A DNA stretch of 60,440 nucleotides, counting the filler, from Dugesia japonica (taxonomy: Eukaryota), in NCBI GenBank assembly GCA_001938525.1. It is 5 parts of 5 records of this genome, joined end to end, with 100 filler letters (N's around TTAATTAATTAA, not from the genome) between each part and the next. Parts side by side here need not be neighbours in the genome. Positions count along the whole stretch, not along the records: positions 13,148 to 24,128 come from MQRL01593317.1; positions 24,229 to 34,617 come from MQRL01648173.1; positions 34,718 to 46,551 come from MQRL01622864.1; 2 more parts are not named here. The stretch is one strand, 5' to 3'. Both the position numbers and the translations under genes were made by a program. Under the pieces are notes generated by a model. It saw only the letters and a list, made by a program, of their open reading frames with translations. It was not told the DNA's origin and searched no databases. Position 1 is the stretch's first letter; each line of letters begins with the position of its first letter. Shown here piece after piece: positions 22,495 through 46,453 of this stretch.

Positions 22495-22877
22495 TTACAG
22501 TAGATCCAGTGCTCCTGGGTCCAGCCACTGATCTGGTTCTGTCAACAAAAAGTTGAAAGTGGCGACATCATCGTCGTCATCCCATTGGGTTACATTTGGG
22601 TTGCCTATTTGTCGTGACAAATCCTCAATGTATTGTTTTAAAAACTCGATTTTTCTGGTTAATAATTGTTTATTCTCGGCTTTTAGGGCCTTTACTTGGA
22701 CTGCAAGGTCGTTCTGTTTCTTTACTATAGAGTCCAGTTTCTTAATTAGTTTATCTCGTTGATTTAGGTGTCGCAACAGGGCCTGGTTTGTTTTCCGCTT
22801 CAAATGCCTTTCTACCAATAGTCGTCGCATTATCCGGTGGCATCGTCGAAGGCTTGTGGGAAAAATAATTCGTGGCA
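22495..22877 (-). CDS. Cassette C: terminal-exon-like ORF; basic region + coiled coil + acidic tail
   Basis: Open 127 codons starting at TTTTGATTTAG|TG (phase 1, no ATG at the start); TAA followed by AATAAA. Confidence 0.65.
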
Positions 22878-22994
22878 CTAAATCAAAAGTATATTAAGTC
22901 GACAATAATCTAGTTCACAAATGAAGAAGTAAATGCGAAAAGATACAAATAAAAAGATTTATTAACAGCTACACAACATAACCACGGAGGTTAC

Positions 22995-23353
22995 TCAGGG
23001 GCGCTTGGTTTGAGTACCTTTATCAATCAAGAGGGGTTGTAGAGGCANNNNNNNNNNNNNNNNNNNNNNNNNNNNNNNNNNNNNNNNNNNGCGTTCCTGG
23101 TAAGTTTTAATAATTGTGGCGAAACTGTCAACTTGGGCCTTCCACACCCTCTCCTGATTCTGGGTGGCATCCATCTCCGCTTTGAACATTAGACATTTTC
23201 GCTTATAGCGTTTTACTTTAGCTTCGGCCGTCGAGGTCTCCGCCTCCTATCGCTTCCTTGCTAGTTTGTACAGATCCCAGGTTAATTCCTTTTCGGCATT
23301 ATCTTCCCGGACTTTCTTAGTCGGGGCCAGGGAACGGTTTAATGATGAATGCA
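22995..23353 (-). pseudogene. Cassette B1: coiled-coil ORF ending IDKGTQTKRP; one internal stop
   Basis: TTTTATTTTAG|TG acceptor; gapless homology to 46104-46453; AATAAA about 35 nt after the stop. Confidence 0.75.
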
Positions 23354-23665
23354 CTAAAATAAAAGTATAGTTAAAGGATTGCACTTTGCCCGATATTATC
23401 TAAGGTGAGAAACATAGATTTAGCATGGTCACTCATATTATTGAATGAAAGTGGACAAGGAAACATCTAGTTACGAGGATTATTAATTNNNNNNNNNNNN
23501 NNNNNNNNNNNNNNNNNNNNNNNNNNNNNNNNNNNNNNTTTATGCGAAACAATTTAACAAAACAAAAAATTTTAAATGACTTCCCGGTACATAGATTCAC
23601 AGGAAGAATTAAAAATAACCGAAAATGAAAAAAACTTAATTTATTTTTAGGTAAAACAACCATAG

Positions 23666-24024
23666 CTAGGATTGATTAATAGTAGTGTCAGTATTAGGGG
23701 CCGTATTCTCAATATCCGTCACCCCATTCGGATCCCGAACTCCCCATAGAAGATTTGCGATGAACGTCCTGAATCGCAGGGGTGGGTGGAGGAGTGGTCG
23801 GTTGATGAGTGAAGGAAGTTGTATGCGTGCGAATGGACCGGTCCACGCCTGGTACCTCTGTCGTTCTCCGAAATCGTTAATACGACCCACAATAGATTCG
23901 ACCGGTGGTAGATTCGATCGGTCGATTAACACTCCGGCGTCCCGCTGATGAGGGTTGGGATACCTCCGTAGAATTAGCCGTCGGGTCCTCCTATCTACGA
24001 CGTGGATCCAAACCGATTCCATAT
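23666..24024 (-). CDS. Cassette A1: Arg-rich small protein
   Basis: TTTTGTTATTAG|AT acceptor; homologous to 45503-45891 (W-I...NP..RDAG.L.DRSNLP.VE...NLLW..RDP); AATAAA after the stop. Confidence 0.75.
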
Positions 24025-24128
24025 CTAATAACAAAATAGATTCTATTGAAGTTAAACTTTTAACGAAATTATGATATAATAGCGAACACACAAAACAAGC
24101 AGGCGTTAAACATTTTATTTCTGTAAAT

Positions 24129-24228
24129 NNNNNNNNNNNNNNNNNNNNNNNNNNNNNNNNNNNNNNNNNNNNTTAATTAATTAANNNNNNNNNNNNNNNN
24201 NNNNNNNNNNNNNNNNNNNNNNNNNNNN
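24129..24228. other. Artificial contig-joining linker
   Basis: 44 N + TTAATTAATTAA (24173-24184) + 44 N. Confidence 0.97.
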
Positions 24229-24499
24229 AATTTTCTTTGTGTCTGTGTTGCACAAATATCAAATTTGAAAGTAAATTAATTTAAAAGACAATTATTAAAA
24301 ACCATGTATTATTACTTAATACAAACAAAAAAACATCAATAAACATAACAAACATTAAGCTTTTGCCAACTTCTTCAATAAAACAAATCTTCTGTTGTTG
24401 TATTTGAAAAATCTACCAGTGGATCAATGGAATCGAGATCAACTGGAACATTATTGTAAAATTGCAACACTAATTAGACTTTGTATTAAAAATTGCGTC

Positions 24500-44110: not shown

Positions 44111-44724
44111 ACTTATCAAAATTAACCTAAAAATTTTTATTTTACGCTGCATAAGCAGTTATATAAATCTCTAAATTCAATTTGTTAGGAAAAAAAGGAA
44201 ACTTGTGAAATTTAGCAACCAAAGAAAAAATAATACCCCAAATTGGAAATTAATTTAGTTAACACGATTACTTATACAAATTTCAATAATTTACTCTCAG
44301 GAGATTTCCGTTGCAGAAAATAATTATCAATCAGTAAGTTAAAGTTTCATTGTCATACTCTAAAATTGCCCCACAAACACTGAGAGTCGTTAAAATTTTC
44401 ACTGTAGCAAAATGTTGCGAAACGATTGCGAAATGTTATGCGAAATGATCCATTATTAATTGGAAATTAGGATTATTTGGATTATTTGGATGATCAAATA
44501 TTCATGCCTGCATCTACTACTAATAATTTTGATTGGGATTCTCAGTCCGCACTGTTAATGGATAATTACTAATATTGCCTAGTATTATGATTTTTCAGAC
44601 CGTGTTTTAACGTCTAACATCTTTAGGACTTACCAAATCCAAATTGTATTCCCGCCAACATGTAATTTTGAGGTAATATTGAAATCAAAAAATAATACTC
44701 GGAATGGAATGGCATTTCTACAAT

Positions 44725-45000
44725 TAAATTTTATAATTATCATAATTACTAATATGAATATTATTTTTACCACAATTAATATTATTATGAGCAATAATTA
44801 TTGGGATAATTATTATCTGTATGAAAGTTATCATTATTATCACTGTGGTTATTATCATCAATGCCATAGATGTTATGATTATTTTATTCCATATTAGTAT
44901 TCTTCTCATTATTAGCGGTATTATTATCACTACTATTATTGTTATTATTATCACTTTTTATCAGTATTATTACTAATATTGCGGCTATTATTATTATTGT
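44725..45000. repeat. Degenerate (ATT)n low-complexity tract
   Basis: Direct inspection. Confidence 0.8.
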
Positions 45001-45199
45001 CGATGGTTATTCGTTGGATTTCATAAACTAGTTCAACCAAGATGAGTATATTATTGTATTGTACGATGAAATAAAAGGTAATCAATATTAAACTTTTTAT
45101 CAACCGGGCGAACACGGACTATAATAGTCCGTATGTTTCCTCATCGTTACTGAAAAATTAAGAGTTTCTTATATTTACGCCACAGCTACCACATAATAA

Positions 45200-45379
45200 A
45201 TGTCCCACATTCTGACTTTAAGAATCATCCGACAAGAGCGTGAAAAGTCCGGCAGGAAACAACTGATCGGCCACGTTTTGGAACCACATCGAATACTATC
45301 ACCGCATGAAACCGATCTGCGAAGCTTTGAGGACTTATTCCCACTACCGGATAATATCGACATGTACGTTGATGTATAA
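45200..45379 (+). CDS. Cassette Z: 59-aa ORF (MSHILTLRIIRQERE...DMYVDV), below the ORF-track cutoff
   Basis: CACAG acceptor ending at 45185 is in phase 1 with this frame (two TAA before the ATG); AATAAA at ~45406. Confidence 0.5.
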   Translation: MSHILTLRIIRQEREKSGRKQLIGHVLEPHRILSPHETDLRSFEDLFPLPDNIDMYVDV

Positions 45380-45502
45380 TTTTGTTATTGTTGTTTTACT
45401 TATTAAATAAAATTTCTGTTAAATTGTAACCTCTTGTTGAAATTGTTCTTAAATTATAATTTGACATATGCTACGATTAATAGTAATACTTTAAATTTCT
45501 AG

Positions 45503-45891
45503 TGAATAACGCTATTTGGATTAGAACTTGGAATCGCAGGCCGCGTAGAATGATCTTTCATCGGATGGCCAACCCTTTTAACAGGGATGCAGGCATCTTG
45601 GTTGATCGCTCCAATTTGCCGGCAGTGGAAGCCCGAATAGAGCGGTTACGGGACACATGGGAACGGCGTAGCCATCGTTTCCGGCAAATGAATTCACATG
45701 AGTTACCTACCCGCTTCACGCATGAAACCCCGCCCGTTCCATCTGTAGCAGGGAAAAGTATTAATAATCTTTTATGGAACATCCGAGACCCTATGAATTC
45801 GGAGAATAAGGAAAAAATTGACCCTGCTCCCACTCCTGTAATTCCTAGTGATGTTGAAAATACGAAATCAACGTCCACTAATGAAATTTAG
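45503..45891 (+). CDS. Cassette A2
   Basis: AATTTCTAG|TG acceptor, open frame, homologous to A1, AATAAA at ~45933. Confidence 0.75.
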
Positions 45892-46103
45892 CTGTGTTGA
45901 TTTGTCTCCTTTTACTTGTACTATATCCTATAAATAAATTTTGTTTAACTAGAGTGAAGAGTTCGTTCATTGATGTTTTTAGATTTGTTTTCTTAATTGA
46001 GTTTACTTATACTGAATTCGGTTGTTCATGTTTAAAAAAAATTTTTTTTTGCTTTATCATATTATCCGTACTAATCAAATTAATTGATAATAAAAAATTC
46101 TAG

Positions 46104-46453
46104 TGCACTCATCGCTCAGGTGTTACGTCGCCCCCACGAAAAAGGTCCGAGAACAAAACAAGGAACTAGAGATGTCTTGGGATCTCTATAAATTGGCTAA
46201 ACGGAAATGGAAGGCCGAAACAGCCGCCGCGAACGCCAAGGTGAATCGTTATAAAAATAAATGCCGTAGCTACCGAATAGAAGCAGAGGCCTCCCATGCT
46301 CAGGAGCGTTTTTGGAAACGTAAGGTAGAGTCCTTCGCAGATATTATCCGGTCCCTCCATGACTGTTAAAATAAACTGGTGACTGATTAACTGGAAATGC
46401 GGAAGCATGTTATTTTGAAGGCTTTGATGGTGGATAAATCCACACAAACTTGA
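46104..46453 (+). pseudogene. Cassette B2 ending VDKSTQT*; two internal TAA
   Basis: AATTCTAG|TG acceptor; gapless homology to B1. Confidence 0.75.

Follow-up and report, generated by a model that had tools for sequence, protein, structure and literature searches.

How can small proteins be made from rows of reading frames most of which have no start codon? This question is raised by a 60,440-nucleotide stretch of Dugesia japonica DNA (the window). In this AT-rich animal genome, repeated mobile DNA contains small conserved coding cassettes arranged in rows, most of them without a start codon. The cassettes, labeled A to E and Z, occupy three loci on two contigs, as originally described and as confirmed by the positions of the joins between contigs (N44-linker-N44 at 13048, 24129, 34618, and 46552). 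The cassette families are multi-copy in DNA contigs, every copy in the window is decayed or gapped, and the arrays are interrupted by contig ends or other inserts. From sequence comparison, we assign a probability of roughly 45% to the reading in which these cassettes are conserved segments of multi-copy mobile DNA that would serve as alternative last exons, spliced to a non-coding leader ending in A.

Anatomy and coding status of the cassettes

A first-pass annotation described same-strand cassettes opening at phase-1 YAG acceptors, and the long frame is phase 1 at all seven acceptors that it named (A1, B1, C, D1, D2, A2, and B2; Table 1). The CAG of Z is likewise phase 1, as proposed, although two stops separate it from the ATG; for E, a phase-1 acceptor had been proposed as a decayed GACAG, and no AG is present there, the expected place being occupied by GACAT. 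TG follows six of the seven named acceptors (all except A1), as reported, compared with 6.5% of the 2279 YAG sites of the window; counted by family, TG in four of six has a chance probability of ~2e-4, or ~2.5e-3 if B and D are one family. GC content is 0.15-0.35 in the 60 nt upstream of the acceptors versus 0.38-0.53 in the first 60 nt of the cassettes, and the upstream AG-free run measures from 16 to >58 nt. The claim that the GC step and the homology begin exactly at the YAG is borne out by the DNA homology of B and D, where TAGTG is retained at the exact homology edge despite saturated synonymous sites in B, but is only approximate for GC, with change-points at -4 to +27 nt relative to the seven acceptors.

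In eight of the nine cassettes, an AATAAA is located between -5 and +41 nt relative to the stop, B2 being the exception already noted, whereas the background is 20% of the 8247 stop triplets of the window and 25% in low-GC DNA. In the A-B arrays, 86-292 nt separate the AATAAA from the next acceptor (earlier estimated at about 80-290 nt), and the further AATAAA placed just upstream of A1 (~24115) is found at 24119. The A-B order is retained, whereas alignment of the A-B spacers is no better than that of shuffled sequence (p 0.37-0.62), in agreement with the original description of a conserved order with diverged spacers.

Table 1. Cassettes, candidate donors, and terminal elements in window coordinates; the slash marks a splice site.
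Feature	Position	Strand	First exon base	Description
Cassette A1	23666..24024	-	24024	phase-1 acceptor AG/AT; own ATG at codon 1; 118 codons; AATAAA ~23645
Cassette B1	22995..23353	-	23353	AG/TG; first ATG at codon 55; one internal stop and N gap; AATAAA ~22963
Cassette C	22495..22877	-	22877	AG/TG; 126 codons; coiled-coil-like; AATAAA overlapping stop
Cassette E	39736..40175	+		own ATG at codon 2; GC-rich frame shifts near 40058, ahead of stop overlapped by AATAAA (~40170)
Cassette D1	40486..40808	+	40486	AG/TG; one internal stop; AATAAA at 40804 and 40827
Cassette D2	41292..41614	+	41292	AG/TG; two internal stops and N gap; AATAAA ~41635
Cassette Z	45186..45379	+	45186	CAG/CT; own ATG at codon 5; 59 codons; AATAAA 45406; a diverged paralog spans 45097-45415
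Cassette A2	45503..45891	+	45503	AG/TG; 128 codons; first ATG at codon 16; AATAAA ~45933
Cassette B2	46104..46453	+	46104	AG/TG; first ATG at codon 23; two late internal stops; no AATAAA; 3′ purine run (46473), then very deep repeat
Candidate A-ending donor	45042..45051	+		ATGA/GTATAT; 140 nt before Z
Candidate A-ending donor	41141..41150	+		ATGA/GTATTA; 147 nt before D2
Candidate A-ending donor		+		CAGA/GTAAAT at 40346; 140 nt before D1; resembles D2 candidate
Core and extension closing D1 unit	40954..41141	+		~100-nt core (purine tract, then TG), extending to CAACA
Second core and extension copy	41818..42004	+		deepest bin in DNA contigs
Candidate PPT and 3′ LTR	22160..22430	-		purine tract 22430-22418; ~180-nt unit 3′ of C, ending TCAACA and including assembly overlap at N gap; then (AAT)n

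Judged from their substitution patterns, the cassette frames are real coding sequence under purifying selection. The dN/dS ratio between copies, for which a value near 1 had been named as contrary evidence, is 0.10 in D (pN/pS 0.17); pN/pS is 0.36 in B and 0.39-0.58 in A, with synonymous sites saturated, compared with 0.96-7.65 in shifted sense frames. Codons 1-22 of B, which lie 5′ of any ATG in both copies, retain 15 identical residues, 10 of them with synonymous change, which supports the earlier argument that the start must come from upstream. Serial splicing of the cassettes, raised at first as contrary to alternative last exons, is disfavored: no phase-1 donor conserved between paralogs was found near their ends, and the D stop occupies the identical place in three copies.

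No named relatives of the cassette proteins were found; searches of PHROGs, PDB sequences, and the atlas yielded no family, and single-sequence protein searches with A2 and B2 had no match. Pfam returned only sub-threshold coiled-coil matches. The structure model of A is poor (pLDDT 55, pTM 0.26) and had no match in BFVD. Scans for similar loci in collections of viral, metagenome, and prokaryote sequence gave nothing beyond one short acidic-motif match (L001), dismissed as chance. Paralogy between B and D, D and E, and A and Z is weak and, on sequence, unproven (blastp E 0.015-0.06 for B-D in a 10-sequence set; hhalign probability <2%).

Start codons and splicing

An in-frame ATG within codons 1-5 occurs in precisely the three cassettes without TG (A1, Z, and E), for which the chance is ~9e-4 given cassette codon usage, and the six TG cassettes have no ATG before codon 8. 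TG and a near ATG are thus mutually exclusive in 9/9 copies (Fisher p 0.012, the copies being not fully independent), as would be predicted by a non-coding leader ending in A, which on joining TG would complete an A/TG start. Two copies from outside the window fit the same pattern. A profile search with B and D accepted only one of 132 candidates (P0001), an open copy of D whose homology starts at the D acceptor position, after Ile-Val; among five matches to the A profile, only P0002 is a relative, and it is called from a Met at the A1 Met position. The other four were rejected as weak (two named Vibrionaceae repeat proteins, one repeat protein, and one unread). The split A/TG start suggested in the first-pass annotation is supported by this exclusivity, while its leader was not found.

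Under the preferred reading, a single transcript would span the array, and each cassette, likely an alternative last exon, would be cis-spliced to the A-ending leader, the splice itself creating the start codon. The choice of acceptor and poly(A) site would yield one small protein per mRNA, and cassettes without TG would start at their own ATG. Unspliced or read-through RNA would be unable to initiate the cassette proteins, and translation would be gated by splicing. Cassettes B, C, D, and E, which have a coiled-coil look, may most plausibly encode small binding or assembly factors.

We infer one shared leader for the cassettes. The model of a shared leader with alternative terminal exons stands with respect to terminal-exon anatomy, purifying selection, and an upstream start; no leader exon was identified in the window, and D2 is no sister exon to D1. 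Local micro-exons upstream and trans-splicing are possible alternatives to the shared leader. ATGAGT occurs in four of nine spacers (2-5% expected in each; a post hoc count) and also fits local micro-exons. Against an A-ending leader, splice donors are usually preceded by G. In the spacers of C, A1, A2, and E, no A-ending donor lies farther than 40 nt from the acceptor, so that their leader would have to be remote. Tiny introns beside the start were also considered and set aside, inspection by eye revealing no consistent A-ending donor close to the acceptors.

Junction reads at these acceptors, proposed as the direct check, were not seen at thin RNA depth (only 498 and 59 mapped reads, with zero for Z): none of the best 15 of 49 splice joints had raw-read support, and none of the best 24 of 1183 loose read ends lay at an acceptor. 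In this uncalibrated library, every read over D2, over the 3′ portion of A2, and over the 5′ portion of B2 is first-mate-plus, an orientation that denotes antisense RNA in most stranded libraries, and these few reads may be antisense. Data set X1, assigned to RNA by guess only, showed near-complete bin coverage like DNA and was left out as expression evidence.

Four other explanations were weighed. The cassettes could be independent compact genes, each with its own promoter and with a short first exon, located in the spacer, whose last bases are A or ATG-A, in which case an intron would sit within or right after the start codon. ATGA/GT found 79-147 nt before B1, D1, D2, and Z, TTGA/GT 103 nt before B2, and the solitary position of D2 in its unit agree with this, and since all window copies are decayed or gapped, loss of local donors is possible. 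The explanation is nevertheless unlikely, given the spacers without an A-ending donor, the mere 86-97 nt from AATAAA to acceptor for C, A1, and A2, the weakness of some candidate donors (GTTTGG, GTGACC), and the failure of the B1 and B2 donors to align.

Somewhat less probable still is an operon resolved by spliced-leader (SL) trans-splicing, in which poly(A) cleavage would be followed by joining of a host leader RNA at the next AG. Spliced leaders of some other animals end in G and would yield only GTG. A leader ending in AUG would meet an immediate stop at A2, D1, and D2, and the phase-0 frames of the six TG cassettes close after 0-21 codons. The failure to find a cis leader in the window favors trans-splicing, as do the spacers from AATAAA to AG, which match operon spacing (300 bp or less in the flatworm criterion of PMC12582326). 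The flatworm leader, however, ends in AUG (also PMC12582326), and every phase-1 cassette would be out of frame with it.

A design like that of mod(mdg4) and lola, with fusion proteins made by phase-1 splicing of common coding exons to variable last exons, would account for every frame being phase 1, own-ATG cassettes included, but seems improbable because with a coding leader there would be no need for TG to recur in unrelated families, or for an ATG to appear just in the cassettes that lack TG. Equally improbable are ordinary unspliced ORFs with non-AUG or decayed starts: the AATAAA background, the 60 window YAG sites that pass a loose GC-step filter, and the lack of junction reads would allow AG and AATAAA to arise by chance in AT-rich DNA, but the combined chance odds of TG and AATAAA are small, and the TAGTG retained in B and D argues against it.

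Tandem units and the carrier

E, D1, and D2 had been described as a single array; instead, D1 and D2 belong to two diverged units that lie side by side in tandem, with a highly conserved ~100-nt element closing each, and the two are not alternatives within one array. This core is identical at 96/102 nt between the D1 and D2 copies, whereas 55% of D synonymous sites differ. A minus-strand ORF across the core was considered; the core is without synonymous change, which suggests nucleotide-level constraint. It had no Rfam match as a ribozyme or structured RNA, with folding z-scores from -1.43 to +1.42. A Helitron end consists of a short hairpin 10-15 nt before CTRR, followed by T; here, a palindrome lies ~28 nt before CTAG, followed by A, homology continues 80 nt further, and the palindrome is broken in variant copies, and this candidate was rejected.

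The most likely carrier, with odds that are about even, is an LTR retroelement whose 3′ accessory region would hold the cassettes, because the arrays are closed by a purine tract and a TG..CA-like terminal unit after C, D1, and D2, and weakly after B2. A same-strand gypsy integrase (rve, Pfam) ends ~170 nt before E, breaking off past the core of the integrase. Against this assignment, internal sense-strand poly(A) signals would shorten retroelement genomic RNA. The ends of different arrays in the same orientation align no better than shuffles; no 5′ LTR, PBS, or TSD was seen in the window, where contig ends or other inserts truncate the arrays, and no pol lies ahead of Z or A1.

Precedents and significance

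The adenovirus major late unit uses one non-coding leader, many acceptors, and several poly(A) sites to produce one protein per mRNA; its late ORFs each have their own ATG, and a poly(A) site is common to each family. The arrays resemble it at the sequence level in several acceptors that each open a separate ORF and in AATAAA following the ORFs, with the leader here inferred, but the cassettes have an AATAAA each, are mostly without ATG, and are linked to no viral gene. In springer-clade errantiviruses, the env start is split by splicing as AU/G (10.1101/2023.08.03.551782, available text); a leader spliced to a 3′ ORF of a mobile element would similarly complete the start here, although an A/TG split, several unrelated small ORFs (59-128 codons), and separate poly(A) signals are predicted instead of one env ORF, and Pfam detected no env family in seven cassette stretches. 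Splicing is coupled to internal termination within an LTR element in the short GAG RNA of Arabidopsis Ty1/Copia, as described in the accessible part of PMC5580714, but the product there is a single subgenomic RNA for GAG and not a series of accessory last exons. In Drosophila, mod(mdg4) joins a common 5′ part to alternative 3′ exons in at least 31 isoforms (PMC4667647, in the part available), a layout shared with lola; both genes belong to the host and combine a coding BTB leader with zinc-finger exons, whereas Pfam showed no BTB, zinc-finger, or FLYWCH match in the cassettes. Flatworm and nematode SL operons share same-strand genes and short spacers from poly(A) signal to acceptor, as excerpted from PMC12582326, but differ in the off-frame leader. 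Furthermore, the planarian Burro elements are giant and gypsy-type, also reside in an AT-rich animal, and have capacity for accessory coding sequence, carrying additional large named domains in the polyprotein or an accessory ORF (PMC6431247, as far as its text was available), none of which was matched by Pfam in the cassettes. Each part therefore has a precedent; none was found for the combination in the literature searched, outside which lie Repbase, supplements, and most subscription papers, so a named family may exist.

More tentatively, and with minority odds, the arrays could represent an undescribed, abundant family of animal mobile elements with modular orphan-protein cargo behind one non-coding leader, A/TG acting as a universal plug; any acceptor-ORF-poly(A) cassette joining the array would then become a splicing-gated gene. 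Being without ATG, such ORFs would escape ORF-based transposon annotation; as many as six orphan protein families are concerned, each either subject to purifying selection or kept in a conserved order. Should the reading hold, a transposon would have evolved a multi-product unit of the adenovirus kind in which a leader ending in A and cassettes starting with TG tie translation to splicing and allow cargo genes to be gained, duplicated, and swapped, and the arrays would offer a directly testable example of the way in which mobile elements bear many accessory genes.

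Coding frames and acceptors of the cassettes

The cassettes, short GC-richer open frames that mostly start at a phase-1 YAG acceptor without their own start ATG, are genes. Pairwise pN/pS is 0.17 (95% 0.09–0.29) for the D copies, and the dN/dS comparison proposed by the first-pass annotation gave 0.10 for D, i.e., not near 1; pN/pS is 0.36 for B and 0.39–0.58 for A, both with saturated synonymous sites, versus 0.96 or more in the shifted sense frames used as control. In B, codons 1–22 precede the first ATG in both copies and retain 15 residues, 10 with a synonymous change; translation therefore starts upstream, as had been claimed. 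The D stop lies at the identical place in D1, D2, and P0001 (an outside protein relative of D), and no phase-1 donor common to paralogs was found near cassette ends, which argues for putative last exons rather than parts of one serial gene.

Rechecking reproduced the acceptors with their phases and the AG|TG pattern (TG as the first exon bases after the acceptor) that had first been described, and the spacers, said to have diverged, cannot be aligned. AATAAA, also reported near the stops, lies −5 to +41 nt from the stop in eight of nine cassettes versus a 20–25% background. TG follows the acceptor in four of six cassette families (chance p about 2e-4), the background being 6.5% of 2279 window YAG sites, and DNA homology in B1/B2 and D1/D2 begins at TAGTG. 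The assertion that the GC-richer frame begins exactly at the acceptor held in part, the change-points lying near acceptors but not exactly at them; GC alone is not specific for acceptors because 60 of 1240 candidate YAGs pass a loose GC-step filter. Cassette E has no AG at the expected site and contains a frameshift, and Z has two stops ahead of its ATG. The proteins, unrecognised at first reading, matched no named family in database searches. C and D are coiled-coil-like and B and E probably so, with paralogy among the four unproven; the structure model of A is unreliable.

A possible shared leader and split start codon

The first ATG is codon 1, 2, and 5 in the cassettes without TG (A1, E, and Z, respectively; chance of three such early ATGs about 9e-4) and codon 8 (D1), 16 (A2, C), 23 (B2), 55 (B1), and 62 (D2) in those with TG, a complete separation (Fisher p 0.012; nine copies, not all independent). 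This pattern would be expected from a non-coding leader ending in A. Outside relatives were compared as proteins: P0002, a relative of A, is called from Met at the position of A1's Met, and P0001 has an open frame with the same boundary as the window D copies. With a probability of about 0.45, the cassettes would share one such leader, whose splicing to TG would complete a split A|TG start codon.

Local micro-exons, supplying the A near each cassette, are unlikely. A-ending donors stand 140–147 nt ahead of Z, D1, and D2 and ATGAGT occurs in four of nine spacers, whereas the C, A1, A2, and E spacers contain no A-ending donor. This donor pattern is compatible with a remote shared leader and with local micro-exons alike. 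A trans-spliced operon is rather improbable, since the flatworm-type spliced leader, as described in the available part of PMC12582326, ends in AUG and would be off-frame in every cassette. A coding leader, under which the division between TG and early ATG is not needed, is highly improbable, and equally so is expression with no splicing.

Array anatomy, copy number, and RNA reads

AATAAA is found 95 nt ahead of A1, and Z's AATAAA 97 nt ahead of A2; this matching spacing makes (Z)-A-B the likely order in both A-B arrays. E-D1-D2, initially regarded as one array, instead includes two adjacent diverged units, D1 and D2, each closed by a ~100-nt core (96/102 nt identical); their identity is 81% in the coding part and 47% past the CAACA end. 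Within the core, TG follows a purine tract. Downstream of C lies another such tract, then a ~180-nt unit with TCAACA at its end; B2 is followed by a run of purines and by a repeat of very high depth. These tracts and terminal units after D1, D2, C, and B2 suggest 3′ ends of LTR elements, and the odds that the carrier is an LTR retroelement are about even. No 5′ LTR, PBS, or TSD is visible in the window, terminal units of different arrays yielded no significant alignment to each other, and the integrase ahead of E stops short after its own core. An Rfam search with the D1/D2 core matched no family, and its folding was not unusual.

Read matching covered one stretch, 41035–46551 (E, D1, A1, B1, and C lie outside), in 4 of 24 listed runs, all 24 bearing a single species label. 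Between A2 and B2, and ahead of Z, DNA-like contigs of run X6 agree with the window almost to the letter; assembly error therefore does not account for the Z-A2-B2 array, though the source sample may itself be X6. Depth summed over bins, qualitative only, is 14–29 in quiet bins, 62–167 over A2 and the B2 start, 384–1872 over D2, 3464 over the remaining B2, and 72733 over the core, a rise that shows the cassette families to be multi-copy. A diverged Z paralog was found among the matching sequences. On this stretch, 498 RNA reads came from run X8 and 59 from X11, nearly all of them derived from diverged copies. Raw-read support was absent for the listed 15 of 49 joints, at thin X8/X11 depth, and none of the listed 24 of 1183 loose ends fell at acceptors. 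In a typical stranded library, first-mate-plus reads represent antisense RNA. Only first-mate-plus reads fall on D2's 5′ bin (4.56 vs. 0) and on the 3′ bins of A2; they would be antisense if the library is typical, the strand being uncalibrated in a stretch without a calibrating gene. The RNA evidence leans at most slightly against sense expression in the sampled runs.

Genomic setting and known systems

The window, five contigs with linkers between, is AT-rich (GC 0.15–0.39 per kb) and consists nearly entirely of transposon remains: Ty3/gypsy is represented by several pieces, and there is one piece with a protein-primed polymerase B, which we take to be Polinton-like, and another, presumably hAT-like. 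The source is probably an animal whose genome is large and rich in repeats, tentatively a planarian.

Features observed in the window
Feature	Position	Strand	Observation
Possible host or cargo gene	12039-13040	+	ORF, 334 codons; no Pfam match
Exon-like piece, 79 nt	39584-39662	-	Between broken integrase and E; acceptor after very AT-rich run; donor AAG|GTAAGA
Exon-like piece, 20 nt	40326-40346	+	T-rich AG|TG to A|GTAAAT, 140 nt ahead of D1; could be non-coding leader exon or shrunken cassette
Core frame	41821-41883	+	Core readable as short frame; end stop varies TGA/TAA across other copies; resembles ORF passing through purine tract
Inverted-orientation copy pair, ~480 nt	42858-43335, 43640-44111		74% identity; multi-copy in DNA contigs; between D2 unit and Z-A2-B2 array
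Exon-like piece, low-copy	44599-44672	+	TTTTCAG acceptor, GAG|GTAATA donor; phase-1 open; 500 nt before Z
Inverted repeat, perfect, 8 bp	45115-45131		TATAAT-like centre; inside part common to Z and Z paralog; GTATGT donor just downstream, 55 nt ahead of Z's acceptor
Polinton-like piece	46652-53486	-	1290-aa polymerase B, N-terminal C2H2 fingers, endonuclease-VII-like match; three downstream ORFs without family match
Break in gypsy gag	56229-56487	-	~260-nt AT-rich stretch, starts AG|GTAATT, ends GCAG/ATAG; resembles spliceosomal intron

The cassette array would resemble the adenovirus major late unit in its mode of working. A start codon split by splicing, predicted for the cassettes, is described for springer-clade env in the available part of 10.1101/2023.08.03.551782, and internal termination, likewise predicted, for the Copia short GAG RNA in that of PMC5580714. 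As far as the available parts of the sources extend, mod(mdg4) (PMC4667647) and Burro (PMC6431247) are unlike the cassettes in domain content, and PMC11410931 and PMC4202319 contain nothing on the cassette design. A literature search, with Repbase, most subscription papers, and supplements outside its scope, found no description of the combined design. The cassette architecture is real, selected, and multi-copy.
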